From assembly GCA_048938295.1 (NCBI GenBank), contig JBHLMI010000005.1, positions 1 to 32,000 on the forward strand: a DNA stretch of 32,000 nt. Direction: 5' to 3'. Made by a program: the position numbers and the translations under genes. Position 1 is the stretch's first letter. Each line of letters starts with the position of its first letter. This document shows positions 2,377 to 29,939 of this stretch, piece by piece. Under the pieces are notes generated by a model. That model did no database searches, had not been told where the DNA came from, and saw only the letters and a program-made list of their open reading frames with translations. This DNA comes from Promethearchaeota archaeon. Its GTDB lineage: Archaea > Asgardarchaeota > Hermodarchaeia > Hermodarchaeales > Hermodarchaeaceae.

Positions 2377-3600
2377 TCAGATGAGATTTTTTGGAAGTTT
2401 TAAATCAAGATTGGAAATTCGAGTCTTAAGAGTTGAGGGAGTATGACTTTCAAAGTAGAGAGCTTTGATAAACTCGTCTAAGAGATTGGCTTCCTGGGCT
2501 GCACTATAGAAGCCCTGAACCAACCACGCCCCTACCAAGTAGGTGTATCCGTAGGGACCCCAAATAGAATCGGTCATAAATGGGATACGAGCTTCAGCAT
2601 ATGCAGTCTCATAGGCACCCATATCTTTGAGATAATCGACGACCTCGAGTTCACTGCGTTGTTCTTGCTGAATCATTACAAGGGCATTGATCCCGACAGC
2701 TCGTCTTAATTGCATCAGATAGTTGGAAACGGTTTCGGGTTTCGTTAAAGGTCGGACTGAACTTAGAATATCTGTTCCTGCCTCAGCTAAACCTTCCGCG
2801 ATTGTGCATTCAGGAGTGTTAATGATGGCAATCGTTGATTCAAGGTTGTGTGTTCCGCTATGGTAGCCAGACTCTTGTTGAACCAGTTGGGTTTGATGTC
2901 CAGGATACGTTTCATGGGTTACCCATTTCCAAATGGTATACTTGCTTCGAGGAAGTGCGATGTTAATTTCTATGATTGCCCTGTAATTCCCCTGATAATG
3001 GTTATACGCACTCCATGGAGCTTCATCAATGGCGCGAAATTCGACCCCTTCTTGCTCTGGAAGTGTGAAAAGCAGTTTCTGAGTAGCCTTCCGAGCTTCC
3101 AGAGCCACCTCCTCTGCTAGAGGAATAATCTCAGCCCCCTTTGTCATTGCTCGGTTTCTCCATCGAGTTGCCATAGAAGTCAGATCACCTGTCAAAACTT
3201 CATTCCGAAGGGCTCGAGACGCTTGTTCTGTTAACTCATCAATGCGTTCGCTCGAGATCGTTACGACATCAACATTCAATCCAATTTTAACTCGTTCTTG
3301 AAATGTCACAGGTTCCTCTAGCCCATATTGTACAAGAAGCTTCAAAGCATCCGATTGACGCAACAGATAAGACCGGCGTGGCTCGTCGCGAATTTGCTTC
3401 TTCACATTGACTTGAAATCGTTTAATCAAGCTTAGCAAACCGTCGGGGTCAACCACAGATTTCTCGGGCTTTAATTCTGAAGGGCCAAAATAGCTATCTA
3501 CAATAATAGTATCAGGCCCAATTTCCTGCTTGAGAAAATGATCAATTTTGAATCCGAGATAGATATAGGTTTCACCGATTTCAGAAAGGTTCTGTGTCAA
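2377..3600 (-). CDS. DUF885-like putative metalloprotein
   Basis: 407-aa ORF with HETYPGH and EGLAE motifs typical of DUF885. TTG start overlaps the upstream GTPase gene by 20 nt. Confidence 0.6.
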   Translation of the reverse strand: MTQNLSEIGETYIYLGFKIDHFLKQEIGPDTIIVDSYFGPSELKPEKSVVDPDGLLSLIKRFQVNVKKQIRDEPRRSYLLRQSDALKLLVQYGLEEPVTFQERVKIGLNVDVVTISSERIDELTEQASRALRNEVLTGDLTSMATRWRNRAMTKGAEIIPLAEEVALEARKATQKLLFTLPEQEGVEFRAIDEAPWSAYNHYQGNYRAIIEINIALPRSKYTIWKWVTHETYPGHQTQLVQQESGYHSGTHNLESTIAIINTPECTIAEGLAEAGTDILSSVRPLTKPETVSNYLMQLRRAVGINALVMIQQEQRSELEVVDYLKDMGAYETAYAEARIPFMTDSIWGPYGYTYLVGAWLVQGFYSAAQEANLLDEFIKALYFESHTPSTLKTRISNLDLKLPKNLI

Positions 3601-4192
3601 CGCTTTTCGCCTCAGGAAAGAGCTTATCCATTAACTGCGTGGCTAAGTCTTGGAATGCCTCATTGACGTTGCGGCCGTCTAAAGCACTAGTTTCGTAATA
3701 CTTTCCTTGAATTCGATCAGTAGCTTGTTTTGCGGCATATTCGGAGACCTCTCGATCGTGTTCTAAATCAACCTTATTTCCTAACACAACGCGTATGAAA
3801 TCGTTCCCAAGGATGGCTTTGACCTCATCTAGCCACTTGGTTTCAATTGCAGCAGCCGATGAAGCGCGGGTTGTGTCAAACACAAAAATTACGGCATTGG
3901 ATCCGGTGTAGTAGCGCTGGCGGAGAGGTTGGAATCGTTCTTGACCACCGGTATCAAATAGCTGCAATTTCAGTTTTCGCCCCCTTACATCGACTATCTT
4001 GGTCACAATGTTGACTCCAATGCTAGGTTTGTAATCATGGTCGAATGTATTTTCAGCAAATCGGCGAATTAGGCTAGTTTTACCAACTCCCCAATCACCA
4101 ACAATCACAACTTTGACGACATAACCAGCTTTGGGGGGTTTCTCTATTTCAACCGTGATTGATTCAGCGCTGGAATTAGAAATATACCTCAC
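3581..4192 (-). CDS. Rab-like small GTPase (Ras superfamily)
   Basis: G1 GDWGVGKTS, G2 YKPSIG, G3 DTGGQE, G4 NKVD, G5 ETSA. RabF-like segments IGVNI, KLQLF, RFQPL, YYTGS. No C-terminal Cys. Confidence 0.92.
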   Translation of the reverse strand: MRYISNSSAESITVEIEKPPKAGYVVKVVIVGDWGVGKTSLIRRFAENTFDHDYKPSIGVNIVTKIVDVRGRKLKLQLFDTGGQERFQPLRQRYYTGSNAVIFVFDTTRASSAAAIETKWLDEVKAILGNDFIRVVLGNKVDLEHDREVSEYAAKQATDRIQGKYYETSALDGRNVNEAFQDLATQLMDKLFPEAKSVDTEPF

Positions 4193-6763: not shown

Positions 6764-6785
6764 CAGGTAATTAAGAATGGTGGCT

Positions 6786-7328
6786 ATGAAGATTTTAATT
6801 GCCTATTATAGTGAAACGGGGAATACTGCGCAAGTGGCGCAGGCGATGTATGAAGCGTTGTCAAAGGATCATGATGTAGTATTGATGACAGTGCAAGAGG
6901 TTTCTTTTGATCTCTTACTTGGTTTCGAGTTGGTGTTTTTGGGTGCAGCGGTCCATGATTCGGATTTAGCTAAGCCGTTGAAGCGGTTGTTGGAAGTTTT
7001 ACCCATGAATCCTTCTTTCAAGTTAGCGGGATTTTCAACACATGCTGTTTATGAGCCGGATGGCTCGTCGCACAAAGATGCATTGTATGAGCAGTGGGCG
7101 GGTCGATGTTTGCCCTCCTTTAAAGTTGCTTGTCGGGAAAAGAGCATTCAGTTTCTCGGTTATTTTCATTGTCAAGGAGTTCCCTCAGAGCCGATTGAAA
7201 GGTTTATTCATCGAGAAATCATTACATCCAAAGAGGAATGGAATGAATACTTACCTGAATTACGGAAGCACCCAACCCCAGAAGATTTACAGAACGCGAA
7301 AGATTTTGCACGCAAGATGATCAATTAG
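6786..7328 (+). CDS. Flavodoxin-family protein
   Basis: MKILIAYYSETGNTAQVAQAM FMN-binding loop, LVFLGAAV, LAGFSTH, FLGYFHCQG and C-terminal HPTPEDLQNAKDFA. The alternative start is 6777. Confidence 0.85.
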   Translation: MKILIAYYSETGNTAQVAQAMYEALSKDHDVVLMTVQEVSFDLLLGFELVFLGAAVHDSDLAKPLKRLLEVLPMNPSFKLAGFSTHAVYEPDGSSHKDALYEQWAGRCLPSFKVACREKSIQFLGYFHCQGVPSEPIERFIHREIITSKEEWNEYLPELRKHPTPEDLQNAKDFARKMIN

Positions 7329-7630: not shown

Positions 7631-7773
7631 CTCAACCCTCTTCATCTGTTCCATCCCTTTTTTCGAATAAGTTAAACTCTATTTTTTTGGGCTCATTGCA
7701 ACTAAAGGATTTTATACGCTCGAAATACTGTCTTACCAGGCTTGCATAACTTAATGGAATGGAGAAAAAGATC

Positions 7774-8220
7774 ATGGGATTATTTGGTCGATTTAAAGCC
7801 CCCAAAGCGACAATCTCAGTAATGTTGAATAAGGATACGTACAGCCTTAATGAGCCCCTAACAGGGACCGTTAATGTGTCATCATCCGAAGAATTTGACG
7901 CCGATGAAGTTCGTCTTGAAATCTGGGTCAACGAATGGACCAAAGCGACCGAGAAGCAGGGTACGAAAGAAAAACCAATAACAGTAACCGCTCAACAAAA
8001 CAGCGTACTCCATCAAGGCAAGAATTCCATCGGAGGTCAAATGCAATTTACCGACGGTTTTAGCGACAGTATTGACTTCAGTATCCATTTACCTTCAGGA
8101 GTTCCCCCCACCTATCGAAGTCAAAATGCCCGAAATACCTGGATGATGAAAGGCGTAATTGCCGTTAAAGGCCGACCCGATATCACTAGCCACGACATGG
8201 AAGTTGTAATAACCTACTAG
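7774..8220 (+). CDS. Arrestin-N/Spo0M-like beta-sandwich protein
   Basis: ISVMLNKDTYSLNEPLTGTVNV (cf. y.pGe.v.G.v.l) and FSIHLPSGVPPTY...WMMKGVIAVKGRPD match the arrestin_N/Spo0M pattern. Start is 7774 (MGLF) or 7759. Confidence 0.65.
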   Translation: MGLFGRFKAPKATISVMLNKDTYSLNEPLTGTVNVSSSEEFDADEVRLEIWVNEWTKATEKQGTKEKPITVTAQQNSVLHQGKNSIGGQMQFTDGFSDSIDFSIHLPSGVPPTYRSQNARNTWMMKGVIAVKGRPDITSHDMEVVITY

Positions 8221-8405: not shown

Positions 8406-11400
8406 GTGGTGAATACTGTGGTTAGCGCTGATCCCTCAATACTTCTATCTGATATAACGAAGCTTCCCGCAAAACTCAAGCGGAAGCTGGACGCCCATGG
8501 GATTAATGATCTTGCACATCTTTTTTTGGCAGAGACAAAATTGCAGGACGCAGTCACATTAGCGACCAATACGGATCTTACAATTCGTGGGGCTCTTGAA
8601 GCCCGACAGATTGCTCGACGTTATTTTGAAACCATTTTAGCAGATATAACCGCCAAGCGCAAGGTTGAATCATTAGGATTATTATGGAAGATTCATTGGT
8701 TGCTAGGAGTTGTACCTGAGGGAGATTTCCGAAATGAGCTCATTGCGCTTGAGGCTTCAGCGATTGCGGCAATTCTTGAAGCTTTAGAAGTCATAGAGGC
8801 TTCGACAGTTGAACAAATCCTCCAGATACTGCTTCACCGCCTGCTCATTATTCCAAAAGTGACAATGAAGGCGGAGTTGACTCAACTTGTGGAATTTGCC
8901 GAGAAGTTTCAGCGGAGCTCCTTACTCGCCTACCAAACAACCAAAGCAAAGGATTCGATGATGGCATTAGCCGATGAGGATGATCCCACAAAGCAGGTTG
9001 TACTGATACGAAAACTCACAACCCATTGGAAGACTCTTCATAAGACAATGCAAGACCGCAGCCAGGAACGGGGAACCGTAATTGTAACAGCACTGCAGTC
9101 AACTGATGATCTAAGAGTGTTAGATATCAGCGAACAGCATTTGCAAGAACGCCTTCAACAAACCATGTCAACAAAGAAGCTGCGGCAATCCCAATTAAAG
9201 CACATCACGACTGCAATGAATGCCATGTTTGAACTCCGCGATGCCTACTCCACCGCCAAACTAGCCACGCGCGCGAGCCAGATATGGTTTGAACTGGCAC
9301 AAGGCAAATCTAGCAAGGCACTCGGAGACGATTTATTACGCAGTCTACGATTTGCACGTACCGCGATTTTCAATTATCGTGCACTTGACGATTTGAACAG
9401 AGCTGTCAAGCAGATTAATCATATTATCCTCTTATTAGGTGAGATCCCATTCGAACCTGCTGAACCCCTTGAGGAGGCCGTTACAAGTGCCTTCCAAACG
9501 TTAATCCGAACTATCCCACTCCTGGACCGTCCTGCAGACCAAGAATTCATCCTTCGAATCTCAAAACGGCTAGGCATCATCCAAACAAGGTTGATGCCCA
9601 AAATCGCAGCGCCTGAAGCCCAGTCGGCTTTGGCAAAACTCCAAATCGAATTCCAACAAACAGCACTAAAACAGCTACAACACCTTGGTGCAACATCTGA
9701 GACCTATCAACCGCTCACCCAAGAGCTCATAGAAGCCCAACTGCGCCTTGTCGACGTTGCCCCAGAAGATGAAAAAGACATTCTGTTGAACGCAGCCGCT
9801 GAACATGCGACCCAACTAATACCTGAGATCCGCCAAACAACGGAAATCGACGAGAATAATCTTGAACTTATTTCCCGCCTTGTACAGCAACTTGCACAGC
9901 GACCAAAGGAAACTTTGAGTGATTCAGCACATCGCCTTAGGGAAAAAAGTCACCAACTCAACGAACAACTGTATTTCCAAACCAAAGACCCCCAAATACG
10001 GGCTCAACTCGCCCTGCAACTCTTACTCTCAAAGGTCTCCCCGGATCCTTCAGGGAGGGTAACCATAACCTTTCCTAGCAAAGATTTGGACAAACTCGAA
10101 GATTATGCGACAACAGCGATGTTAGCCCAGGTAAAAGGTCGACAACAAGTAAAAGCTTTGAAAGCGGGTTCACTGCTGGTCTGGATTCTAATACAGCGGT
10201 TAAGTGAAACAACAGAGAGCAAGGAGTTGCATAAATTAAGGGATGATGCACAAGAATTTGCAGAACAGACGCTTGCGTTTATGCCTCCATCAAACGAGTT
10301 GACTGGCGAGGCGTATCCTTTCGCCTTCCTCCTACTCCGTAATGTCAACGCCTTAGCTTACGAAGAGCAGCCCGCTGAGGAGACAAAATGGGAACAGCTG
10401 TTAACACAAAGTGAACAACTCGCCCAAACTCTGGCTAAAGCTGCAGCGCTGAAGAAGGACACACGCAACGGGGTTCTAGCTTTAAGTGCTGCAGGAACTG
10501 CTACAGCTAAACTCGCAACGCTTACCTCCGACCGCAGTTCACAAACTCGATTACTCCGGAGGGCGGCAACCCAGTTACAAAAAGCACTCGAAGTTGTAGC
10601 CAGTGATGAAGATTCTGCAGATATTGAGGCCGTTTTGTCTCAATATACTCAGCTCATGCGAGCCCGCTTATCTGTAACCCCAGCACTCTCTGCGCAGATT
10701 CCACTTTTTGAGGAGTGGAATCAAACATTCAAGGAGGGAATTGACGCGCTCCGAAGTAGAGGTGCTGATGATAGCGCAAACAAGCTGCAAGCGTCACTGA
10801 TACTAAACACGCAGGTACCGCTTGCATTCACCCGCCTGAGCAAAGAAAAAGCAACCCTTGATTCGGTTCGACGGAAGCTGCTAGAAATGCTCCGTGAAGT
10901 CGGTCAAATCGGGTCCGAGGATCAGGCCAAGTTGGCTCAGCAGCTAGAACGCCGTTGGACCTTCCAATTAGGTGACAACTCGCTATTGGACTCAGGATAT
11001 CGCCTTGAAGGTGGTGAAACTGGTTTCACGTTAGCTGATGAGCATTTTCGAATCAGTCTTCAGGTTGAGCTTGAAATTGCCATCGATGGTCGTGCTTTAC
11101 GGAAAATGACAACCTTTCCCTATCTTCGCCCATCAACAAAGTCCAACGATCTAATCTGGTACGACAAGAACCCCATCTTATCCAGTACTTATGAAAATGA
11201 CCAGCTCCAAACTTGGCTTACCCTTCTTGACCCTAGCGAGAATCATGTCTCTATTGGTTTCTGGCTAGTACCCTCCGAGGACACTAAGACCACTTTGACT
11301 TTACAAATTCTGGGCACCGAAGCCATGTCTCAGGGTGCGGAAGGGGTAATGGTTCAGCTTACTGGTTCACAATTAGAAATACCACGACAACCAGCAGTTG

Positions 11401-11495
11401 CGGAACGAAGGGATACAAAGGGGATCCTCATCTATGAGTCTAAACTTACAGTAGGATTTCCTGATACAATTCGCTTGAATCTACGAATTGCTTAA
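8406..11495 (+). CDS. Large hypothetical protein: N-terminal HhH-like domain, long helical region, beta-rich C-terminus
   Basis: 1029-aa uninterrupted ORF. The N-terminal ITKLPAKLKRKLDAHGINDLAHLFLA...ARQIAR resembles the RadA-N/HhH_5 pattern. L/A/Q/E-rich amphipathic helices follow to about aa 860, then alternating hydrophobic strands. Confidence 0.75.
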   Translation: MVNTVVSADPSILLSDITKLPAKLKRKLDAHGINDLAHLFLAETKLQDAVTLATNTDLTIRGALEARQIARRYFETILADITAKRKVESLGLLWKIHWLLGVVPEGDFRNELIALEASAIAAILEALEVIEASTVEQILQILLHRLLIIPKVTMKAELTQLVEFAEKFQRSSLLAYQTTKAKDSMMALADEDDPTKQVVLIRKLTTHWKTLHKTMQDRSQERGTVIVTALQSTDDLRVLDISEQHLQERLQQTMSTKKLRQSQLKHITTAMNAMFELRDAYSTAKLATRASQIWFELAQGKSSKALGDDLLRSLRFARTAIFNYRALDDLNRAVKQINHIILLLGEIPFEPAEPLEEAVTSAFQTLIRTIPLLDRPADQEFILRISKRLGIIQTRLMPKIAAPEAQSALAKLQIEFQQTALKQLQHLGATSETYQPLTQELIEAQLRLVDVAPEDEKDILLNAAAEHATQLIPEIRQTTEIDENNLELISRLVQQLAQRPKETLSDSAHRLREKSHQLNEQLYFQTKDPQIRAQLALQLLLSKVSPDPSGRVTITFPSKDLDKLEDYATTAMLAQVKGRQQVKALKAGSLLVWILIQRLSETTESKELHKLRDDAQEFAEQTLAFMPPSNELTGEAYPFAFLLLRNVNALAYEEQPAEETKWEQLLTQSEQLAQTLAKAAALKKDTRNGVLALSAAGTATAKLATLTSDRSSQTRLLRRAATQLQKALEVVASDEDSADIEAVLSQYTQLMRARLSVTPALSAQIPLFEEWNQTFKEGIDALRSRGADDSANKLQASLILNTQVPLAFTRLSKEKATLDSVRRKLLEMLREVGQIGSEDQAKLAQQLERRWTFQLGDNSLLDSGYRLEGGETGFTLADEHFRISLQVELEIAIDGRALRKMTTFPYLRPSTKSNDLIWYDKNPILSSTYENDQLQTWLTLLDPSENHVSIGFWLVPSEDTKTTLTLQILGTEAMSQGAEGVMVQLTGSQLEIPRQPAVAERRDTKGILIYESKLTVGFPDTIRLNLRIA

Positions 11496-11507
11496 CATCT
11501 CAAATAC

Positions 11508-12128
11508 TCAGAGGACAACAGGTAAACCCCAGAGAACCCAATAGACCATTGCGGTAACAATAATGGCAATGAGTATTCCGGCTAATAGCTGCGAGGGTGA
11601 ATGCAGTTTTAACTTCCAGCGAGCCCATGCCACGAGAACCGCTAAGAGCATAAAGGGGACGAAGAAGAGACCATACACCCAAATCAACCCAGTAATCGGA
11701 CCAGCGACACCAGCACTATGTGCTGAAACTTTCCAATAGAGACTCACAAGTGCAATTACTGAAGTTACTCCAGCATACGCAATGGCAATGACGATCAAGG
11801 TAAGATTGTAATAGAGCCAGGCGATTAACGCGCCACTAACATAGGTGATTATAGCGGCCAGGTAAAGTAGGGGTCGGTCACGGCGATTTTTAACATCGAA
11901 TGTCATTTTTCCGCGCGCAACCATTAACACGACTGGAAGGATGGGACCGATGACGACGAAAAAGAGTCCAATGAGGAAAGATTGCCACGGCTGTATTAAT
12001 CCAGTTCCAATAGGCGAATAAAAAGTAAAAACAGCAACGGTACCCATGGCAATAAGAGGTGGCGATAGAAGATTTGAGAGTGCCCGAGTTATACGAGTAG
12101 AGATTGTTGAATTGACTGGCGGGGTCAT
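11508..12128 (-). CDS. PAP2-superfamily integral membrane phosphatase-like protein
   Basis: About six hydrophobic segments. WKVSAHSAG and ARWKLKLHSPSQLLAG correspond to the PAP2 C2/C3 motifs (SxH; SRxxxxxH). Confidence 0.65.
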   Translation of the reverse strand: MTPPVNSTISTRITRALSNLLSPPLIAMGTVAVFTFYSPIGTGLIQPWQSFLIGLFFVVIGPILPVVLMVARGKMTFDVKNRRDRPLLYLAAIITYVSGALIAWLYYNLTLIVIAIAYAGVTSVIALVSLYWKVSAHSAGVAGPITGLIWVYGLFFVPFMLLAVLVAWARWKLKLHSPSQLLAGILIAIIVTAMVYWVLWGLPVVL

Positions 12129-12158
12129 CGTATCACCATCGACAGAGAGGATGTGGTT

Positions 12159-13946
12159 TTAGAGATTCAATTGTTTGAGACATGATTCCGTAGGTTGACC
12201 AGTTTCATCCCACCCACGAAGGCGGTAATATTCGGGAAGCATCTCTTTAAGATGAGTAACGCGGTTACGGGATCCACCCTCTGGTAAAGGTTTTGAGAAA
12301 CGTGGAGGTAGGCAGTCATCTTTCGCTGAAAAACCTTCTCGAATATTGAATAATCGTTCGAGAGTCCAGATTCTCTCACCAATTTGAAGAAACTCGTTGC
12401 CAGATATCTTTAGCGAGGTGGCAGCGGAGAGTAGATCAGCATAATCTTCCACGCTAAAAGCGAACGTGGTAAATCGGCATAGAACAAGCGAATCCATTGC
12501 CGCAGAGAGATTTTGAAACAGAATCACAAGTCCAGCTTTTCCTTCAACACGATCGCGATCAACAAGGACAGGCGATCCCAATATTTCAGGCCCTATAAGA
12601 TAGGCCCGTAAATGGCATCCCCCACGGTTGGATGTGGCATTAGCGAGAGCGTGTCCCTGAACTCCTCTAAGATCGTATGCAGGCAGTTCCATTCCCTTTA
12701 CCTGCATTGCTAGTTGGGGAGCATTATACCGGATAGCCAAACTCTTGGAACCTTGCCCAAGTTCCTTTCCCAATCCACGAGCATGGGCAATATCATCGAT
12801 GAGGTTGAGCAACTCTGCAGTTTTTGTAAATTCAAGTTTAGATTGGAGGTGACCTTTCTGCACAAGCTCCATCGCACATCCAATGGTGCTGCCCACGGAA
12901 ATTGTGTCTATACCTAGCTCATTACACCGATGATTAGCAGTGGTAATCCATTCGAGATCATTGATCCCACACTGAGGCCCTAAAGCCCAAATAGTCTCAT
13001 ACTCTGGACCACCTACTTCAATTCCTTGAACTTGAGAGATTCTGCCACAGCCAATTGGACAACCGAAACAATGGTACCGCTTGAGGAAGAATCGTTCAAG
13101 TAGCTTTTCCCCAGAAACACCTTCGGCATCGTTGAAAGTACCCTCCTGAAAGTTGTACGTCGGCAGCATCCCGAATTCATTGATGAGGTTGACTAGCACT
13201 GCCGTCCCATACACAGGTAAAGAATTGTTCGTGATGGAATCTTTCTTGATAAGGCGGCGCGTCCGGTTAACGACAATGTCGAGTTTTTCAGGGTCATTTA
13301 TTGAAATTTGTTTAGTGCCCAGAATTACGATGGCTTTCAGATGCTTTGCACCCATGACGGCACCAACACCACCTCGACCAGCTGCGCGATGCTTGTCAGT
13401 CATGATTGCAGCAAGTTTAACCTGGTTCTCTCCACCAGGACCGATGCATGCCACTTGGGCTTTAGGATCAGTTTCATCAAGAAGATAATCTGTGGAGGGA
13501 CTTACCTCTTGACCCCACACATCCTTCGCTGACCGAAATTCAACGTCGTCGTCATTAATCCAGAGATAAGTGGGTGATTTTGCACGCCCCTCGAACACTA
13601 AAGCGGCATAGCCTGCTCGTCGTAGCTGGGGACCGAAGTGTCCTCCACTGTTGGAGTCCAAAATAGTACCAGTTAGTGGTGATTTGGTAATTACAGCGAA
13701 CCGCCCTCCAGTTGGTGCAGCTGAAGCTGTAAGGGGACCAACGGCAAACACCAGAAGATTCTCAGGGGCTAGCGGAGAAACGGCGGGGGTTACTTGATCA
13801 TAGACCAGTTTTACGCCTATACCACGACCACCTAGATATTGGGTAAAAAGCGCAGGTGTTAGTTCTTGTTGTTTCACCGTTTGGTTAGTAAGCGAAATCC
13901 GAAGCAGTTTGGTATCAGAATATGATTGTGTGTTCTCATCTGTCAT
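12159..13946 (-). CDS. aor: Tungsten-containing aldehyde:ferredoxin oxidoreductase
   Basis: LGGRGIG, KSPLTG, RAAGRGGVGAVMGAKHLKAI, 4Fe-4S CFGCPIGC plus DSLVLC, GPEYET, NELGIDTIS, RGGCHL and YYRLRGWD. Confidence 0.95.
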   Translation of the reverse strand: MTDENTQSYSDTKLLRISLTNQTVKQQELTPALFTQYLGGRGIGVKLVYDQVTPAVSPLAPENLLVFAVGPLTASAAPTGGRFAVITKSPLTGTILDSNSGGHFGPQLRRAGYAALVFEGRAKSPTYLWINDDDVEFRSAKDVWGQEVSPSTDYLLDETDPKAQVACIGPGGENQVKLAAIMTDKHRAAGRGGVGAVMGAKHLKAIVILGTKQISINDPEKLDIVVNRTRRLIKKDSITNNSLPVYGTAVLVNLINEFGMLPTYNFQEGTFNDAEGVSGEKLLERFFLKRYHCFGCPIGCGRISQVQGIEVGGPEYETIWALGPQCGINDLEWITTANHRCNELGIDTISVGSTIGCAMELVQKGHLQSKLEFTKTAELLNLIDDIAHARGLGKELGQGSKSLAIRYNAPQLAMQVKGMELPAYDLRGVQGHALANATSNRGGCHLRAYLIGPEILGSPVLVDRDRVEGKAGLVILFQNLSAAMDSLVLCRFTTFAFSVEDYADLLSAATSLKISGNEFLQIGERIWTLERLFNIREGFSAKDDCLPPRFSKPLPEGGSRNRVTHLKEMLPEYYRLRGWDETGQPTESCLKQLNL

Positions 13947-13958
13947 TTGGTTCTCCCT

Positions 13959-14780
13959 CTAATCATTGAAGATGTTTTGGTCACGGTGGGGACAAGTGAC
14001 ACAGCGCTGTTTGTACCAAAGATACACTTCTTTGGGTTGTTTCCCTAAATTGGCCTGCCGGCTTGGGCAAGTCCAGCAGGGTTTATCAGGCTCAAGGAAG
14101 GTGTCACTATATCCTGCCCAACGGAAGCCTTCGATGATAGCAACGCCTGAGCTAGTGCCAAGACGGTTAGCACCTGCATCAATCATTCGCAATGCATCTT
14201 TGAAGCTGCGGATGCCACCTGCAGCTTTTACTCCCATATCCGTTCCTACCGTTTCCCGCATCAACCGAACATCATATGGCGTAGCGCCCATAGGTCCAAA
14301 TCCCGTGGATGTCTTGACAAAGTTTGCACCAGCATCTTGGCAGATAAGACAAGCCTTCTGCTTCTCCTCATCAATTAGAAACCCGGTTTCAAGAATCACT
14401 TTCACTATCGCATCATCAGCGGCACTAACTACCGCCTCGATATCAGATTGAACCAAATCATAGTTCTTGTCTCTTAGAGCACCTATGTTAATTACCATAT
14501 CTACTTCGGTAGCACCTTTTTGCACAGCCTGCTTTGCCTCAAAGGCTTTTACCTCCGAAAGGGTGGCACCCAAGGGAAAGCCAACAACCACGCACACACC
14601 CACTGATGAGTTCTTCAATAAGTCGGTGGCATATTCAACGTGAACGGGATTGATGCATACCGTAGCAAACTCGTAAGCTAGCGCTTCTTCACATAGTTCT
14701 AAAATCTTTGCTCGTTTAGTTTCTGGTTTGAGTCTGGTATGATCAATGAATTTGGCAAGCTCTTCTACTGTCAGTGACAT
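13959..14780 (-). CDS. deoC: Deoxyribose-phosphate aldolase with a C-terminal Cys-rich extension
   Basis: [38 protein letters not shown] (Schiff-base Lys), VKAAGGIR and RLGTSSG. An alternative start at 14804 also has an SD-like AGGAGG. Confidence 0.95.
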
Positions 14781-14914
14781 CTTGAACACTCCTTTGCATC
14801 TCATTTGTCTCCTCCTGTAGAATAAACTTGTTTCTTCACGGAAAAGTGCAGTTCAGATGAACTTCTGCTGCCTGAATAAAGCTTATCTAACTCATTGGGC
14901 GAATTCGAGGGTAG

Positions 14915-16809: not shown

Positions 16810-18468
16810 GTGAAAACAGATTTTAATCTTGACCAACTGCTTGCGAACGGTGAAACTCGAAACACCGAATTTAAGCGCATCCTAACTTCAAAAGATGGAG
16901 TGGGAGACCGGCGAGCGAAGCTTATTGCACAATTGAAATTAATAACAAGCGAGGGCCCAGGTCAATTGGTCGTGGGAATCGAAGACATCCACGGGAAAAA
17001 TTGGGAAGTCTACGGACTTACCACTGAGGAAGTTGAAAACAGCAAGACGGTTCTCAACACGCTCTGTAAAGAAGCAGGTATTGACATTCTGGAACAAACC
17101 CACTATAGCACAGACAAAGGGATTGTGGCCAGTTTCACTGTAGCCCGAGTTATCACCCCCATGGTTCCTGAAACCATTGGTATGAACCTAGTGGGTCGCG
17201 TCAATAGTGGAAAGACGACCCTTGCAGGAGTGCTCATTCAAGGCCAGCTAGATAACGGAAGTGGGCAAGCAAGAGCTTTACTTTTGACTTATCCTCAAGA
17301 ACTAAAACGTGGTCAGACCGCTGACTTACATGTCGCTTTTGCCGCTATTAACAAGCAGGGCAAATTTCTGGCAATGCAAGCACCGCTAGACAAATCAAAA
17401 CGGGCACGAATCCTTGATCAGGCCCATCGAATCATCACCTTCTTTGATGCTCCTGGCCACAAAGAATACGCCAAGACGATGATTCGGAGCGTCCTGGGAG
17501 CCTCTGCCCAATACAGCATGATTCTCGTGCCCTGCTTGGATGAATATAAACTCGCAGTAGCTGAAGTACAACGGAGCGGAATCCGACGCCTCGATGACAT
17601 TACTCGCGAACATCTATTACTGGTTTCCAATCAAGAACTCCCGTTTGTGGTTGTCATCAATAAAGTCGACGATTGTGATGAGCATCGACGAGACCATGTT
17701 CGAACCCTCGTTTTCGAAACCATCAAGGAAATCGGACACGTACCACTTCGCATTACCTCCAAAGACGATATTCCTATCATTTGCCGAGAAATCGCTCACC
17801 GAGTCATTGTCCCAGTATATGAAGTCAGTTGTGTCACCGGGGAAGGATTAGAACTCCTTCGAGAAACACTTGTTCAACTTCCCTCGCGAATACCTGATGA
17901 AAGGATAGAAAAACCTGCGTTCGCATATATCGACAAGGTATACCGGGGGATACGGGGAACCAACATCGTCATCACTGGTACAGTTCAAGAAGGGATATTC
18001 AAACCAGGCCAATCCATCCTTACTGGTCCTGATAAAGACGGCAGATTCATGCAGGGGAGAATAGGATCAATTGAAGTCTTTAAAAAACGGGTGGAACGTG
18101 TGAAGGCAGGAGATGTCTTTGGGTTTGATTTAAAACGCCTCCCACCCGAAAAGATTCGAAGAGGCCAGATAATTTGCGACAAAGATGCAAACGTAAACGC
18201 CGTCAGCACCTTCGAATCTACCATTATTGTGACACGCCACCCCACTCGAATTCGCCAAGGATATGAACCGGTGTTCCATAGTGCGACTATCCAACAGCCG
18301 GTAATTTATGAACATATCTTTGGAAAGGAGTACCTTGTTGTCGGCGATGTGGCCCGCGTTCGCATGGTATTCAAAAAAGGTCCTGAAATGCTTCGTGTAG
18401 GAGATCGAATTGTTACACGAGAGGCTAACACCCGTTGCATCGGTACAGTCACAAAACTTGAACGTTAA
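16810..18468 (+). CDS. GTPBP1/2-like translational GTPase with an N-terminal 'E..EFK' (AlbA/Schlafen-like) domain
   Basis: GETRNTEFK N-domain; G1 GRVNSGKTT, G2 RGQT, G3 DAPGH, G4 NKVD, G5 VSCVTG; EF-Tu-like domains II and III at the C-terminus. Confidence 0.88.
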   Translation: MKTDFNLDQLLANGETRNTEFKRILTSKDGVGDRRAKLIAQLKLITSEGPGQLVVGIEDIHGKNWEVYGLTTEEVENSKTVLNTLCKEAGIDILEQTHYSTDKGIVASFTVARVITPMVPETIGMNLVGRVNSGKTTLAGVLIQGQLDNGSGQARALLLTYPQELKRGQTADLHVAFAAINKQGKFLAMQAPLDKSKRARILDQAHRIITFFDAPGHKEYAKTMIRSVLGASAQYSMILVPCLDEYKLAVAEVQRSGIRRLDDITREHLLLVSNQELPFVVVINKVDDCDEHRRDHVRTLVFETIKEIGHVPLRITSKDDIPIICREIAHRVIVPVYEVSCVTGEGLELLRETLVQLPSRIPDERIEKPAFAYIDKVYRGIRGTNIVITGTVQEGIFKPGQSILTGPDKDGRFMQGRIGSIEVFKKRVERVKAGDVFGFDLKRLPPEKIRRGQIICDKDANVNAVSTFESTIIVTRHPTRIRQGYEPVFHSATIQQPVIYEHIFGKEYLVVGDVARVRMVFKKGPEMLRVGDRIVTREANTRCIGTVTKLER

Positions 18469-22968: not shown

Positions 22969-23235
22969 TTGGTTTGTGTGGTCTACTCTAGCATTGTATG
23001 CCCTCGATGTGAGATGCTCAAACAGTATCTCCAAGATCACAATATTGGGCATTCAGTGCGAATGGTAGAGGAGCCAGATGCACAAGTCGATGCACTGATG
23101 TTGAATATCTATAGTACACCCGCACTGGTCATTGGCCAAAAAGTACTTCATCAAAAGGACCTTTTTGCGAATAATCAACTCGATGAGAACACTCTCTTAG
23201 CATTTCTGAGGAGTAACGGACATGGCCCGGAGTAG
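22969..23235 (+). CDS. Glutaredoxin/NrdH-like redoxin
   Basis: VYSSIVCPRCEMLKQYL (CxxC) and STPAL (cis-Pro). AGGAGG lies 8-14 nt upstream of the TTG start. Overlaps nrdD by 14 nt. Confidence 0.85.
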   Translation: MVCVVYSSIVCPRCEMLKQYLQDHNIGHSVRMVEEPDAQVDALMLNIYSTPALVIGQKVLHQKDLFANNQLDENTLLAFLRSNGHGPE

Positions 23236-25549
23236 GAGGAAACAAAAGGACCTCACCCAACGAATAGTATCGTTGGATGGATGGATTCAGGCAGTCCGAA
23301 AAGAGGAAGCAGGTATGCCTATGGTGCGTACCAGTGATTCCTTGATTCGAAGCTGGAACCGTCAAAAAATTGTTGAGGCCCTTGTCCGGGAAACGATGTT
23401 GGTTCAGGAACTTTTCAATATTCCTTCTATCACTGAGGAGGAAGCGCGGACAATTGCTGGTAAGGTTGAACAACGAATCCAGCAAATGCAACTTCCCTTC
23501 GTGAGCGCCCCCTTGATTCGTGAAATCCAAAACCAGGTTCTCCTTGAGAAAGCGAAACAGGATCCCAGATTCGCAGTATATCGAAATGCCTTGACTCGTG
23601 TTGGTGTTCCCATGTGGGACTTTAGTCACATCATCGGCGGAAATGGCTATGAAGCTCAAGAAAACGCCAACATGCAACCTAACCCAGAAACCATCCATAA
23701 AAAAGTTGCAGATCGGCTTTGTAAAGAAGCTTATCTTTTGATGCTTCCACCGGAGATTGCAGACGCCCACCTGGCGGGAGATATTCACATACATGACCTT
23801 GAATACTTTGGAACCCGACCTTTCTGTGCTGATTACGATGCACGATATTTCTTCAAATATGGGTTGATGTGTGATGGACTCGGTGAAAGGACAGCAGTTG
23901 CGAAACCAGCCACGTACCCCACGGTGGCTATCTTGCACCTCATCAAAGTCTTGGCAGCTGGTCAAACCAACAGTGCCGGAGGTCAAGGACTCTTCAATTT
24001 TAATGTATTCTTGGCGCCTTACCTCCAAGGAAAGTCTGCTCGAGAGATTGAACAGCTTGCTCAAACAATACTCTTCGAAGCCAACGAAACCTATGTCTCT
24101 CGGGGTGGACAATTAGTTTTTTCAAGCATTCAGCTTGAGTCTGGGATTCCAAAAATTTGGCGTGAGGCACCAGTAGTATATCGCGGAAGTGTTGGCCCTG
24201 AAACGTATGGAGACTTTGAGGATGAAGCACGAACCTTCATGACCGCACTCCTCCAAACATACCTTGAAGGCGATGCATGGGGTAAAATGTTCAGCTTCCC
24301 CAAACCGGAAATCCGACTACGCAGCGAATATTTTACCAAAAATGAACATGAAGAGAATATGTACTTAGCAGCAAAGCTCTCAGCGAAGTTTGGGAGCAGC
24401 TACTTCGACAACATCATTCCGGGATACCGGGATTCGGAAGGCCAGGATTGCTATCAATGCTGTGCTTTCCGTCTTGAGGAAGATATCGGGTCAGAAGAGT
24501 TTCAGCGAAAGATTATGTTTGAAGATGGGGCACATTTCTCAATGGGCGGTTTGCAAGTTGTCACCTTGAATTTACCACGCCTTGCCTATATTGCGAAAGG
24601 CAACGATGACCTCTTGTTTGAAGCTCTTCGAAAGCAGATGACAATCGCAAAACGAGTCTTAATGATTAAACGTAAATTCGTGAAGCATCAACTTGAGAGC
24701 GGGTTGCTTCCCTTTCTAAATCAACAACCACAGAGTAATGGACACAAGGCACCACCACTTTTCGATGTTCTCTCTGCATCACCGATTTTCGGTTTTGTGG
24801 GCATCAATGAAATGGTACAATATCATACTGGATCTCAATTACATGAGAGCCAAGAAGCCTTGAGGTTTGGCTTACGTGTTATTGCTGAGATGGAACACAT
24901 CCGGAAGATGTATTCGGAAGAAACTGGATTGCCGTTCGCAGTTGCCCGGACACCCGCCGAATCTTGTTCTACTCGTCTAGCTATCATGGATCTGTTACAT
25001 TATAACGGTGAGGCAAAGTCTGTAGTCAGAGGCGACATTTCTAATTGGCGTCAGCAACTGGAAGAGGCTGGACGCACGGCAGTGCCAGCGTATTATACTA
25101 ATGGATTCATGGTCAACTATGATTCGGAGATATCACTCGCCAAAAAAATAGCGATTGAGGAGAAAGCCTTTCCACTGTTGTCAGGTGGGAATATCTTTCA
25201 CGCATTTCTTGGGGAGGCATCACCAGACCCGGAATCATTAGCGAAATTAAATCAGCGGATTGCGATGAATACTCAGTTGGGTTATTACAGCTACACCCGT
25301 GACCTATCGGTATGTAAGCGGTGCCATCATACAGCTGGTGGATTACTCGAAACCTGTCCAAATTGTGGTCATACCGACATTGACTGGTTTAGTAGAATCA
25401 CTGGATATTACCAGAACGTATCCGGATGGAATGCTGGTAAACGTGAAGAATTGAAACGTCGATACCGGGTCCTAACCGGGGCAGCATCACCACCAGCAGG
25501 TGTGCATCCACTAGCCCCTCAACAACCTCCGGTTCATCAAGTAGATTAA
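23222..25549 (+). CDS. nrdD: Anaerobic (class III) ribonucleoside-triphosphate reductase with an ATP-cone
   Basis: ATP-cone (VRTS...WNRQKIVEAL), GDIHIHDL, RPFC, finger-loop YQCC, TPAES, YYTNG, Zn site CKRC/CPNC and glycyl-radical loop SRITGYY. No intein-sized insertion. Confidence 0.96.
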   Translation: MARSRRKQKDLTQRIVSLDGWIQAVRKEEAGMPMVRTSDSLIRSWNRQKIVEALVRETMLVQELFNIPSITEEEARTIAGKVEQRIQQMQLPFVSAPLIREIQNQVLLEKAKQDPRFAVYRNALTRVGVPMWDFSHIIGGNGYEAQENANMQPNPETIHKKVADRLCKEAYLLMLPPEIADAHLAGDIHIHDLEYFGTRPFCADYDARYFFKYGLMCDGLGERTAVAKPATYPTVAILHLIKVLAAGQTNSAGGQGLFNFNVFLAPYLQGKSAREIEQLAQTILFEANETYVSRGGQLVFSSIQLESGIPKIWREAPVVYRGSVGPETYGDFEDEARTFMTALLQTYLEGDAWGKMFSFPKPEIRLRSEYFTKNEHEENMYLAAKLSAKFGSSYFDNIIPGYRDSEGQDCYQCCAFRLEEDIGSEEFQRKIMFEDGAHFSMGGLQVVTLNLPRLAYIAKGNDDLLFEALRKQMTIAKRVLMIKRKFVKHQLESGLLPFLNQQPQSNGHKAPPLFDVLSASPIFGFVGINEMVQYHTGSQLHESQEALRFGLRVIAEMEHIRKMYSEETGLPFAVARTPAESCSTRLAIMDLLHYNGEAKSVVRGDISNWRQQLEEAGRTAVPAYYTNGFMVNYDSEISLAKKIAIEEKAFPLLSGGNIFHAFLGEASPDPESLAKLNQRIAMNTQLGYYSYTRDLSVCKRCHHTAGGLLETCPNCGHTDIDWFSRITGYYQNVSGWNAGKREELKRRYRVLTGAASPPAGVHPLAPQQPPVHQVD

Positions 25550-28487: not shown

Positions 28488-29195
28488 TTAGAATCGAGTT
28501 ATAATCTTATGTTGCTGTGCATATTGCGCAATACGGGTTAATTCATCGGGAGTAAAAGCCCTGGTTAATGATGAATCTAGGACTGTCCTAGCCGGACGAA
28601 ACTGCTGCAGCACATAATGTTTTGATCCAACCCACTGACGTATCAAGTCAAGTTGTTCTAAGGTATCGATGAGGGAGGGTACAAGAGTTGTGCGAAATTC
28701 ATAGCTTATTTTTGATGATTTGAGGAGGTTGATAGTCTCGTTGATCTGCGCCAAGATAGCTCCGGTTGATTGAGTTACATTAGCATATTGGGTTTGATCT
28801 GGGACAGTCTTGAGGTCCACAGCGATGTAATCAACTAGGTTCGCCTCAAGTAATTCTTGGACAACGTCAGGTTTGGTACCGTTTGTCATCAATCCGAATT
28901 CTAAGCCGTTCTGCTTCGTCCATTCTGCGAGGGCTTTCAATGGAGCGGGTTGAAGTGTGGGTTCCCCCCCGGTAGCGATAACTCCATCTATGAGATACTG
29001 ATTCGGCTCCAGTTCAGGATAGAGTCGCTCTAACTCGATTTTGTACTGGTCGAGGAACTCAAGAAGTGGTCCATTAAAACAGAACCGGCATCGGAGGTTA
29101 CACCCGACGAAGAAAATTACACAGGAGACTTTCGAGGGCCAATCAGTTGTGCTTAGAAGAGGCTTTCCCGCGACATAAGCTTGCACACTAGCCAC
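28488..29195 (-). CDS. nrdG: Anaerobic RNR activating enzyme (radical SAM, glycyl-radical activase)
   Basis: DWPSKVSCVIFFVGCNLRCRFCFN (CxxxCxxC), TGGEPTLQ, TNGTKP, YIAVDLK and EFRTT. Confidence 0.88.
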   Translation of the reverse strand: MASVQAYVAGKPLLSTTDWPSKVSCVIFFVGCNLRCRFCFNGPLLEFLDQYKIELERLYPELEPNQYLIDGVIATGGEPTLQPAPLKALAEWTKQNGLEFGLMTNGTKPDVVQELLEANLVDYIAVDLKTVPDQTQYANVTQSTGAILAQINETINLLKSSKISYEFRTTLVPSLIDTLEQLDLIRQWVGSKHYVLQQFRPARTVLDSSLTRAFTPDELTRIAQYAQQHKIITRF

Positions 29196-29375
29196 CCAGT
29201 GCTTTTTTGAAGACGTGTTCGTGTAAAAGGAGAACCTTCCTCAATAAAATATCTCGTATTCAGCTGTTGTGCTAAGGATTTCATACACGTTGTTGTGTCT
29301 CTCCCTAAATTCGGCTTTTCAGCGATGGTGGAGACTATAAGAGTCTTTGAAATAAAAGGAGAGAGGCAAGCTTAC

Positions 29376-29939
29376 ATGATTGGACAGCAGGCTCCGCTAG
29401 TCAAAGTTATCATTGCAGGGGCAAGTCAGGTGGGAAAAACAAGTTTGATACACAATTATGTCTTCGAAGAATTCATCGAGGTGTCTCCAACAATTGGAAT
29501 AAATTTTGCTCAAAAAATCGGATTGGGAGTCAAAGGACCATTAAATCTAAGTATTTGGGATTTAAGCGGTGAAAACCGGTTTCAGTTTCTGATGCCGCAG
29601 TTTTGTTCTGGTGCAATTGGAGTCATTTTGGTGTGTGATTTGACCAGACCAGCAACATTGGAGGAGGCTATTGTTTGGCTTGATATAGTTCATCAGTGTG
29701 CCCATCCTTCCCACCATAAAGCCGTTATTCTAGCAGGAAATAAAGCAGATCTAATGCCCCGAATTACAGACACAGAGGTTCACCAATTTTGTAAAGGTTA
29801 TGAAATCGCTGGATACATCGAGTGTTCAGCAAAAACGGGTCGGAATGTAGATCAGTTGTTTGAAAGGTTATGTAGCGTTATTCAAAACAGTCTCCCAGAA
29901 TTCTGTCAGCCTCCTAGACAATATACACAGGTTTTGTGA
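29376..29939 (+). CDS. Rab-like small GTPase (second)
   Basis: G1 GASQVGKTS, G2 SPTIG, G3 WDLSGE, G4 NKAD, G5 ECSAK. ATG 29376 follows the purine-rich AGGAGAGAGG; the ORF-track start at 29295 is likely overextended. Confidence 0.9.
   Translation: MIGQQAPLVKVIIAGASQVGKTSLIHNYVFEEFIEVSPTIGINFAQKIGLGVKGPLNLSIWDLSGENRFQFLMPQFCSGAIGVILVCDLTRPATLEEAIVWLDIVHQCAHPSHHKAVILAGNKADLMPRITDTEVHQFCKGYEIAGYIECSAKTGRNVDQLFERLCSVIQNSLPEFCQPPRQYTQVL

Follow-up and report, generated by a model that had tools for sequence, protein, structure and literature searches.

A conserved deoC–aor gene pair in Asgard archaea and bacteria, and its predicted role as an aldolase–oxidoreductase unit

The locus and the tail of its aldolase

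Why does a gene for deoxyribose-5-phosphate aldolase (DERA, here DeoC) lie directly ahead of one for an aldehyde:ferredoxin oxidoreductase (AOR) in a Hermodarchaeota genome? [quoted passage not shown] Within the window, by which we mean the whole 32,000-nt stretch of DNA analysed, the three genes do share the minus strand with the gaps of 12 and 30 nt that were claimed:

14820..14837, minus strand: purine-rich and TTTAT element, some 40 nt ahead of deoC and kept in 10 genomes of the genus; possibly an archaeal BRE/TATA promoter (putative)
13959..14780, minus strand: likely coding part of deoC (ORF 1, open frame 13959-14804), class I deoxyribose-5-phosphate aldolase, 273 aa
14082..14144, minus strand: DeoC residues 213-233 (W221, Y224, S225, F228), spanning the final helix of the barrel and an aromatic linker; AOR-docking surface predicted from the complex-model interface
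13959..14078, minus strand: Cys4 helical mini-domain of DeoC (C235, C238, C260, C263), a probable metal site matching no known family
13947..13958, minus strand: 12-nt deoC-aor spacer, in which the sequence places an AGGGAG Shine-Dalgarno-like ribosome-binding site beside the deoC stop
12159..13946, minus strand: aor (ORF 2), single-subunit AOR/WOR-family aldehyde:ferredoxin oxidoreductase of the deoC-linked clade, 595 aa
12129-12158: 30-nt gap between aor and the PAP2-like gene
11508..12128, minus strand: PAP2-like membrane protein (ORF 3), 206 aa, a co-oriented neighbour outside the conserved module

The ATG at 14780 and the GGAG preceding it are kept in relatives, which the ATG at 14804 is not, and the former is therefore the likely deoC start. 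Close relatives separate deoC from aor by 9-17 nt. A promoter and terminator scan stayed at chance level, its sigma-70 part at the level of shuffled sequence, with archaeal promoters outside the scan's reach.

DeoC scores 291.5 bits against the TIGR00126 cut-off of 117.3, and its catalytic C42, D94, K156 and K185 are invariant, among them the Schiff-base lysine, second lysine and aspartate of class I DERA. The model of the protein (pLDDT 91.7) lies within an rmsd of 0.7-1.3 Å of bacterial DERAs, and from its 58-60% identity to solved DERAs we infer that it cleaves deoxyribose-5-phosphate. Beyond the barrel it bears about 50 extra residues, an aromatic linker followed by CxxC-x21-CxxC, which fit no known class. 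Searches of Pfam, PDB sequences, Atlas features and folds gave no significant match to this tail; the best fold hit (VIA-align) reached a Z of only 2.3 from a query model of pLDDT 58, which leaves a new fold unproven. In the full DeoC model the Cys4 mini-domain is folded (pLDDT 76-87) and both CxxC motifs are helical, whereas the knuckles of rubredoxin and zinc ribbons sit on β hairpins. All four cysteines are invariant in alignments of tailed DeoC, the Cys-less tails of nine genomes without an adjacent aor being set apart. The domain is predicted to be a probable metal site, which would most likely bind one ion, Zn or Fe, and brace the linker. The earlier three-gene description left out this cysteine-rich tail, the most informative feature of the locus. 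We also considered a stand-alone tail protein, encoded by short ORFs upstream of aor (P0175, P0176 and P0184), and rejected it: these are most likely chimeric short contigs, since two match exactly over 136 bases before splitting abruptly and one runs back into the end of the DeoC barrel. Longer contigs carry full DeoC.

Conservation of the gene pair

Conservation extends to deoC and aor only, two genes rather than three. Across GTDB, aor lies less than 200 nt downstream of a tailed deoC in 72 of 74 loci from Hermodarchaeota and Thorarchaeota; the other two end at contig edges, and none is positively without aor. In bacteria, aor is directly 3' of a tailed deoC in 53 of 56 metagenome loci, and the genes flanking the GTDB and metagenome pairs differ between lineages. 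Pairs also occur in three further Asgard families (f10, f6 and f20). The adjacency is therefore not peculiar to this genome. A literature search, most subscription papers being outside its reach, returned no paper on a deoC-AOR link, and the words aldolase, deoxyribose and nucleoside do not occur in the 2026 WOR classification.

In the bacterial loci the operon order is cdd-deoC-aor-moaD-pdp/deoA-yjjG (cytidine deaminase, thymidine phosphorylase and nucleotidase among the products), adjoined by NupC/NupG-type transporters and adenosine deaminase and often accompanied by a divergent dihydropyrimidine-dehydrogenase-like gene. The pair sits inside a nucleoside-catabolic operon in bacteria, and we consider it very likely that DeoC and AOR are coupled in nucleoside catabolism, with DNA as the inferred source of the deoxyribose. 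The taxonomy of these bacteria is uncertain: one record is named Aminicenantia UBA2199, the same protein is assigned to Chrysiogenales at NCBI, and Cloacimonadota appear in the Atlas cluster. In the archaeal loci the pair has neither a phosphorylase nor a mutase gene clustered with it. The genome itself encodes uridine and other nucleoside phosphorylases and three phosphohexomutases, the family to which the archaeal phosphopentomutase belongs; deoB was not found in it.

Absence of the DeoC tail coincides with absence of aor. Where deoC at the same syntenic sites is tail-less, aor is missing in all 15 loci (4/4 in Hermodarchaeota, 11/11 in Thorarchaeota), and no orthologue of the linked aor was found elsewhere in those genomes. 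These joint losses amount to two independent pairs on well-supported branches and four on all branches, which precludes a statistical test of co-evolution. Of the tailed DeoCs, 14 lack an aor next to them; away from aor the four-Cys tail persists in four genomes and the Cys-less tail in nine, and the tail can therefore be retained independently of AOR. DeoC identities (73-76% versus 60%) and a first tree had suggested that the module passed from Thorarchaeota to this genus, but we claim no direction because a single Hermodarchaeota clade is not rejected by an AU test (p 0.67).

The third gene and the flavodoxin behave differently. ORF 3 has no Pfam match at E≤0.1, an orthologue matches PAP2 only at E 0.01, below the cut-off, and PAP2 accounts for 15-44% of members in its Atlas neighbours (0.96); it is accordingly described here as a distant PAP2-like protein. 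It has no PDB sequence match. Compared with the superfamily motifs (C1 K-x6-RP, C2 PSGH, C3 SR-x5-H-x3-D/Q), a C2-like SAH and a C3 R-x5-H-x3-Q are invariant, and C1 has RP with a shifted Lys. Lipid phosphates are the usual substrates of PAP2 enzymes of this membrane type. The initial annotation had suggested that it could dephosphorylate external nucleotides for uptake and that the flavodoxin might accept the electrons, and the co-orientation, the 30-nt gap, the intact phosphatase histidines and the presence of the gene in every Hermodarchaeota locus that extends far enough speak for such a module. However, the gene accompanies deoC only in Hermodarchaeota, where in a sister genus it stays beside deoC when both aor and the tail are absent; no Thorarchaeota or bacterial locus has it, the bacterial ones carrying a HAD nucleotidase instead. 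The flavodoxin (6777-7328) is 4.2 kb away on the opposite strand, no homologue of it was found near any other locus examined, and the genome encodes many ferredoxin-type genes. Both are bystanders, and the three-gene reading is scarcely credible.

Docking, substrate and cofactor

On balance, we favour a docked two-enzyme unit in which DeoC and AOR oxidise deoxyribose-derived acetaldehyde to acetate and reduce ferredoxin. In this dedicated unit of deoxynucleoside catabolism, the aromatic linker after the barrel would dock DeoC onto AOR, as predicted by modelling, with support from covariation. Active-site conservation and the bacterial gene context are consistent with AOR turning acetaldehyde into acetate beside its site of production and passing the electrons through its own [4Fe-4S] cluster to ferredoxin. 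Oxidation would both remove a toxic product and pull the aldolase towards cleavage.

A physical complex is predicted, and we regard it as probable. The complex model scores 0.78 and all controls 0.00; 58 of 80 solved complexes reach this mark, as do 2 of 110 mismatched pairs. At least 94% of contacts are the same between runs, partner pLDDT is at least 89, and we know of no solved DERA-AOR complex that the model could recall. In the model, docking runs through the last barrel helix and linker of DeoC (residues 213-233), where positions 221, 224 and 228 are hydrophobic in aor-linked lineages and 221 and 224 are polar in 13 tailed DeoCs without an adjacent aor. On the AOR side, V460 and L473 are hydrophobic also in the unlinked A. 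aromaticum AOR, which weakens the hydrophobic enrichment at the predicted interface. The two enzymes might instead be co-expressed and act in sequence on free acetaldehyde, the Cys4 tail serving as a metal or redox sensor or as a stabiliser of the DeoC oligomer. The tails kept without aor fit this alternative, as does the position of the Cys4 part outside the confident interface, but the clean controls and the loss of linker aromatics where aor is not adjacent argue for docking and make it unlikely. A role for the tail as electron carrier is disfavoured in the model, because the AOR cluster loop (residues 291-300) also lies outside the confident interface.

The aor product combines AFOR_N and AFOR_C (PF02730 and PF01314). 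Its closest match is P. furiosus AOR (1aor, E 1e-182), and its best PDB matches are characterised AORs (507-612 bits; FOR 319). The [4Fe-4S] cysteines C293, C296, C300 and C490 are conserved together with T248, E317, Y424 and H445, the second shell that marks AOR sensu stricto (Thr243/Glu313/Tyr427/His448 in P. furiosus numbering; PMC12096430). The Fe-bridge ligands Glu332 and His383 of P. furiosus are replaced by T336 and Asn, an absence expected outside Pyrococcus (PMC12096430). The deoC-linked AORs form one clade (SH-aLRT 95), and nearly all carry R491 beside the cluster ligand C490, where four solved AORs have Leu or Ile; specificity in the linked enzymes may therefore differ. In P. furiosus FOR, glutarate is bound by an Arg in this position. 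Together with GAP being DeoC's other product, R491 is what commends a GAPOR/GOR-like enzyme acting on a phosphorylated aldehyde (GAP or open-chain deoxyribose-5-phosphate) rather than on acetaldehyde. That reading seems to us quite improbable, given 52.6 bits against the 1300-bit cut-off of the GAPOR model (NF040818), broad-range AORs as the closest structural relatives, Lys at position 491 in unlinked relatives too, and the presence here of Y424 and H445, in a Tyr/His region absent from GAPOR (PMC12096430). Acetaldehyde is the likely substrate of AOR.

The direction of flux also deserves comment. Reduction of unactivated acids by AORs is possible (PMC12096430, PMC12727526), deoxyribonucleosides can be built with DERA run in reverse (PMC4247479), and docking would trap scarce aldehyde; AOR might make acetaldehyde from acetate for DeoC to condense with GAP, giving deoxyribose-5-phosphate without ribonucleotide reductase. 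If the docked pair did run backwards in the cell from acetate, reduced ferredoxin and GAP, living cells would have a way to the DNA sugar that bypasses ribonucleotide reductase, similar in kind to what has been proposed for early life (PMC4247479). However, the same 32,000-nt window holds an intact class III ribonucleotide reductase with its activase, and the bacterial operon, with its deaminase, nucleotidase and transporters, is catabolic. We hold both a reverse pathway and reversibility in the cell to be very remote prospects.

The enzyme had been called a tungsten AOR. The full AOR active site bears out the second word; the first comes from family knowledge only, and TupA, WtpA, MoeA and MoaC were not found in this genome (91.6% complete). 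A relative's tupABC-moaB-moeA-moaA-moaC cluster has no homologue here either, MoeA and MoaC are present in only 2 of the 19 genomes of the class, and MoaC occurs in 2 of 22 genomes of family f10 and 30 of 86 Thorarchaeota genomes, all counts that rest on incomplete bins. These absences would suit an archaeal AOR rarely loaded with cofactor, the pair being a mostly idle relic or active only with scavenged pterin cofactor. Yet aor is intact, with cofactor and cluster residues invariant, in all hosts, the genomes retain 2-16 WOR matches each, and the bacterial operon brings its own moaD, so that we find idleness highly unlikely. It speaks against the favoured reading that this genome encodes eight other WORs as well as NAD-type aldehyde dehydrogenases.

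Comparison with known systems

Within the deo operon (deoCABD) and the DERA/phosphopentomutase route of T. kodakarensis, DeoC likewise serves deoxynucleoside catabolism, and the bacterial deoC-aor loci have pdp/deoA, cdd and nucleoside transporters. Classical DeoC, in contrast, ends at about 220-260 aa, with neither a Cys4 domain nor an AOR. Acetaldehyde limits DERA in its use as an industrial catalyst, which gives a natural DERA-AOR pair applied interest.

Among oxidoreductases, the closest counterparts are the AOR sensu stricto, or Class I, clade 87 WORs (1AOR and C. autoethanogenum AFOR 9G7J; PMC13328260, PMC12096430), which have the same single large subunit, four cluster cysteines and Thr/Glu/Tyr/His shell. 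A MoaD-like worX next to aor in the deoC-linked bacterial operons is a further point in common. The deoC-linked clade differs from P. furiosus AOR in its missing Fe-bridge ligands and its R491, and it is linked to an enzyme acting earlier in the pathway, whereas known AORs sensu stricto detoxify aldehydes in general and have partners for electron transfer only. A defined physiological role is available for only five of 92 WOR clades (PMC13328260); one clade would gain a specific role, in deoxynucleoside catabolism, and a new kind of WOR partner would join the known electron-transfer subunits, namely a pathway enzyme that docks by means of a tail not described before.

DmpG-DmpF and HsaF-HsaG (PDB 1NVM, 4JN6; PMC12041015) also bind an acetaldehyde-releasing aldolase to an oxidising enzyme, an arrangement that is here predicted from a model. 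They pair a metal-dependent HOA aldolase with an NAD+/CoA-acylating dehydrogenase that yields acetyl-CoA, whereas acetate would be the product of our pair, made up of a class I DERA and a pterin/Fe-S ferredoxin enzyme; the partners come from other families and share no homology, and by analogy DeoC-AOR may work like the DmpFG complexes without being a member. The SPU bacterial microcompartment (PMC11585597) resembles our system in its extended DERA, in handling acetaldehyde alongside and in its proposed use of DNA breakdown products. It differs in extending DERA at the N-terminus, the extension here being C-terminal with Cys4, and in its use of a protein shell and an acylating aldehyde dehydrogenase; shell genes, RpiB and acylating aldehyde dehydrogenase were all absent from the annotated neighbours of deoC-aor loci. 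On this proposal, sediment Asgard archaea and Aminicenantia could draw energy from the sugar of DNA. DeoC-AOR would add to the DmpFG-type complexes and the SPU microcompartments a third, independently evolved way of containing aldolase-made acetaldehyde, and the only one of them to give low-potential electrons.

The locus and its neighbours

The initial annotation described three same-strand open reading frames with spacers of 12 nt and 30 nt, and this arrangement is borne out, all three lying on the minus strand. The first gene encodes DeoC (TIGR00126 match) and the second a member of the AOR/WOR family that is most similar to P. furiosus AOR, both as proposed. The third had been called PAP2; it bears only a distant likeness to PAP2 and has no Pfam match. 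Window coordinates and strands are as follows.

13959..14780 (-), deoC
12159..13946 (-), aor
11508..12128 (-), PAP2-like gene
8406-11495 (+), 1029-aa protein without Pfam/NCBIfam match, kept in both Hermodarchaeota genera and convergent with the PAP2-like gene
7759-8220 (+), Arrestin-N-like protein of Asgard eukaryotic-signature type
6777-7328, flavodoxin
3581-4192 (-) and 29295-29939 (+), two small GTPase-like ORFs of Asgard eukaryotic-signature types
16810-18468 (+), GTPase resembling EF-1alpha/SelB whose N-terminus carries an extra domain of ~120 aa; it scores under every NCBIfam cut-off and is syntenic in the genus
23222-25549 (+) and 28488-29195 (-), class III anaerobic ribonucleotide reductase NrdD and its activase NrdG, ~9-14 kb from deoC

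The start of deoC is most likely at position 14780, since the ATG and GGAG there are kept in relatives and the ATG at 14804 is not; DeoC residues are numbered from this start. The divergent spacer between deoC and an M42-peptidase gene holds a near-invariant 18-nt element, TAGATAAGCTTTATTCAG (minus strand, window 14860-14890, 10 genomes), which is probably the promoter of the peptidase gene or else a regulator site.

A tailed DeoC and its partner gene

Solved DERAs align with this DeoC only up to ~residue 220, and the protein runs ~50 residues further. This tail consists of an aromatic linker (W221, Y224, F228) and then CxxC-x21-CxxC, is as conserved as the barrel (52 homologues) and is predicted by a structure model to be a folded helical unit; it matched none of the known families and solved folds with which it was compared. 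The full-length shape of the tailed DeoC is shared by an Atlas cluster of 84 proteins, 73% of them bacterial (TM 0.95).

The deoC-aor pair is real and widespread, and is not unique to the host genome. Searching GTDB genomes with the tail recovered 74 loci from Hermodarchaeota and Thorarchaeota, with aor at most 200 nt after deoC in 72 and a contig edge at the remaining two. The flanking genes are wholly different between the two groups, so it is the pair itself that is conserved and not its neighbourhood. Three further Asgard families have divergent tailed pairs. Metagenomes yielded 56 loci (54-70% GC), which are close kin and not independent cases; aor comes next in 53, a contig edge in two, and one runs straight to a phosphorylase.

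In bacteria the AOR is built into a nucleoside-catabolic operon, and this is the strongest evidence for its role. The order in three annotated examples is cytidine deaminase, deoC, aor, MoaD-like, pyrimidine-nucleoside/thymidine phosphorylase and YjjG nucleotidase; two of the three have a NupC- or NupG-type transporter, adenosine deaminase and a phosphoribosyltransferase close by, and one record carries the name Aminicenantia. Where one bacterial tailed deoC leads directly to the phosphorylase with no aor between them (L218:214-1044), residue 224 of the predicted interface is Ser; in 43 others it is Phe.

Tail and aor are also absent together. All four sister-genus loci have a tail-less deoC with the PAP2-like gene directly after it, and no aor orthologue was found in these genomes, the best WOR being at most 40% identical. 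In Thorarchaeota, eleven loci that share their flanking genes with tailed relatives have a tail-less deoC without aor, and their genomes gave no match at E<=1e-140. A barrel-only tree contains two well-supported independent joint-loss contrasts (four over all branches), too few for significance. The converse is imperfect: no aor adjoins the genes for four DeoCs that have the Cys4 tail, nine whose tail lacks Cys, and a further tailed deoC in bacteria. Transfer of the pair from Thorarchaeota was not supported by an AU test.

Two other genes had been drawn into the module. The PAP2-like gene is confined to Hermodarchaeota, with or without aor, and stands outside the module; it may be co-transcribed here. 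The flavodoxin is likewise read as a bystander: no homologue lies within 5-6 kb of the tail at any Thorarchaeota or bacterial locus, the groups compared, Hermodarchaeota loci being too short.

Several Asgard variants were seen. The DeoC of family f7 (L133, L140-L144, L146, L147, L167) has a tail with a KQPK-VY helix in which all four Cys are absent; no aor adjoins, and mutS-like and mutL-like genes come next (read by eye). Loki-like families f19/f20 (L151, L154, L155, L157, L161, L165, L132) group deoC with a TctA-like transporter, a YdjM protein and an unannotated ~337-aa protein, and at L132 the tailed pair lies inside this cluster. An apparent fusion of DeoC to a PEP-synthase-like protein (L166:4045-7824) is probably a scaffolding artefact, because the joint spans a run of N.

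The AOR and its predicted contact with DeoC

Catalytic residues of the pair are intact. The cluster cysteines of this AOR are invariant, as are four second-shell residues which define AOR chemistry (PMC12096430). Profile comparison ruled out a GAPOR. The P. furiosus Fe-bridge is absent, and R491 departs from four solved AORs, so another substrate is possible. A quick tree places the deoC-linked AORs, drawn from six lineages, in one clade (SH-aLRT 95), separate from eight unlinked relatives and the other WORs of the host genome. In a single case (L244:1365-3756, genome G127) an AOR of this clade occurs without deoC; the gene that follows it after 4 nt encodes a class II aldolase (PRK08660 family), which may mark a change of partner to a different aldolase that releases an aldehyde.

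Structure modelling supports binding of DeoC to AOR and predicts direct docking. The complex scored 0.78, a mark met by 58/80 solved complexes and 2/110 mismatched pairs (counts only approximate for the alignments used here), and the best control 0.00; contacts agreed by at least 94% between runs, with partner pLDDT of at least 89. The modelled interface joins DeoC 192-194 and 213-233 to AOR 232-236, 453-476, 496-500 and 520, the linker being the docking part and the Cys4 part and AOR cluster loop lying outside the confident interface. Nearly all of ~125 aor-linked sequences have hydrophobic residues at DeoC positions 221, 224 and 228, and 221/224 are polar in 13 tailed, unlinked Asgard DeoCs. 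Four of nine AOR positions turning hydrophobic in all linked lineages fall within the 22-residue interface (Fisher p 2e-4). This enrichment counts little, given the single origin of the clade, the non-independence of the positions and the presence of two of them in the unlinked A. aromaticum AOR.

Direction, cofactor supply and known systems

Enzymes encoded elsewhere would convert nucleosides, by phosphorolysis and isomerisation, to deoxyribose-5-phosphate; DeoC would cleave this to GAP and acetaldehyde, which DeoC-bound AOR would oxidise to acetate, reducing ferredoxin. The host genome has many ferredoxin-type genes. Phosphorylases are present (uridine phosphorylase, other PNP-family enzymes and AMP phosphorylase); for the phosphopentomutase, deoB was not found in the genome, which has three phosphohexomutases. 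These are tandem paralogues (G000:C6:31720-36830, L233), one of which could be the missing enzyme. Chemically, DeoC and AOR could also run in reverse as a biosynthetic route, but this is disfavoured because the window encodes NrdD and NrdG.

The host genome (91.6% complete) has nine WORs. A search of it found neither MoeA, MoaC, TupA or WtpA nor counterparts of the complete tup-moa cluster present in a relative. The metal of this AOR, which we take to be tungsten, is therefore an assumption based on its family. In most of the WOR-rich Hermodarchaeota (19 genomes), genes for molybdopterin biosynthesis and tungstate uptake were not detected; MoeA and MoaC were found in 2/19 (G012:C31 and G013:C11; L254, L256), each time in a single cluster, tupABC-moaB-moeA-MOSC-moaA-moaC. 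MoaC is present in 30/86 Thorarchaeota genomes and rare in other Asgard families (f7 2/31, f10 2/22, f12 0/12, f19 2/14). A cofactor-gene island may have been lost in binning, though incomplete bins are unlikely to be the sole cause of 17/19 absences; the cofactor may instead be made by a non-homologous route, and scavenging by the hosts is possible.

We found no published description of the deoC-AOR pair in the literature searched, and the 2026 WOR classification mentions neither aldolase nor nucleoside links. The new results are the operon context in bacteria, the losses at syntenic sites, the clade of linked AORs, the docking model and the removal of the PAP2-like gene from the module. DeoC-AOR probably works like the DmpFG-type aldolase-dehydrogenase complexes (PMC12041015) and would solve the problem that SPU microcompartments also deal with (PMC11585597), but is a member of neither.
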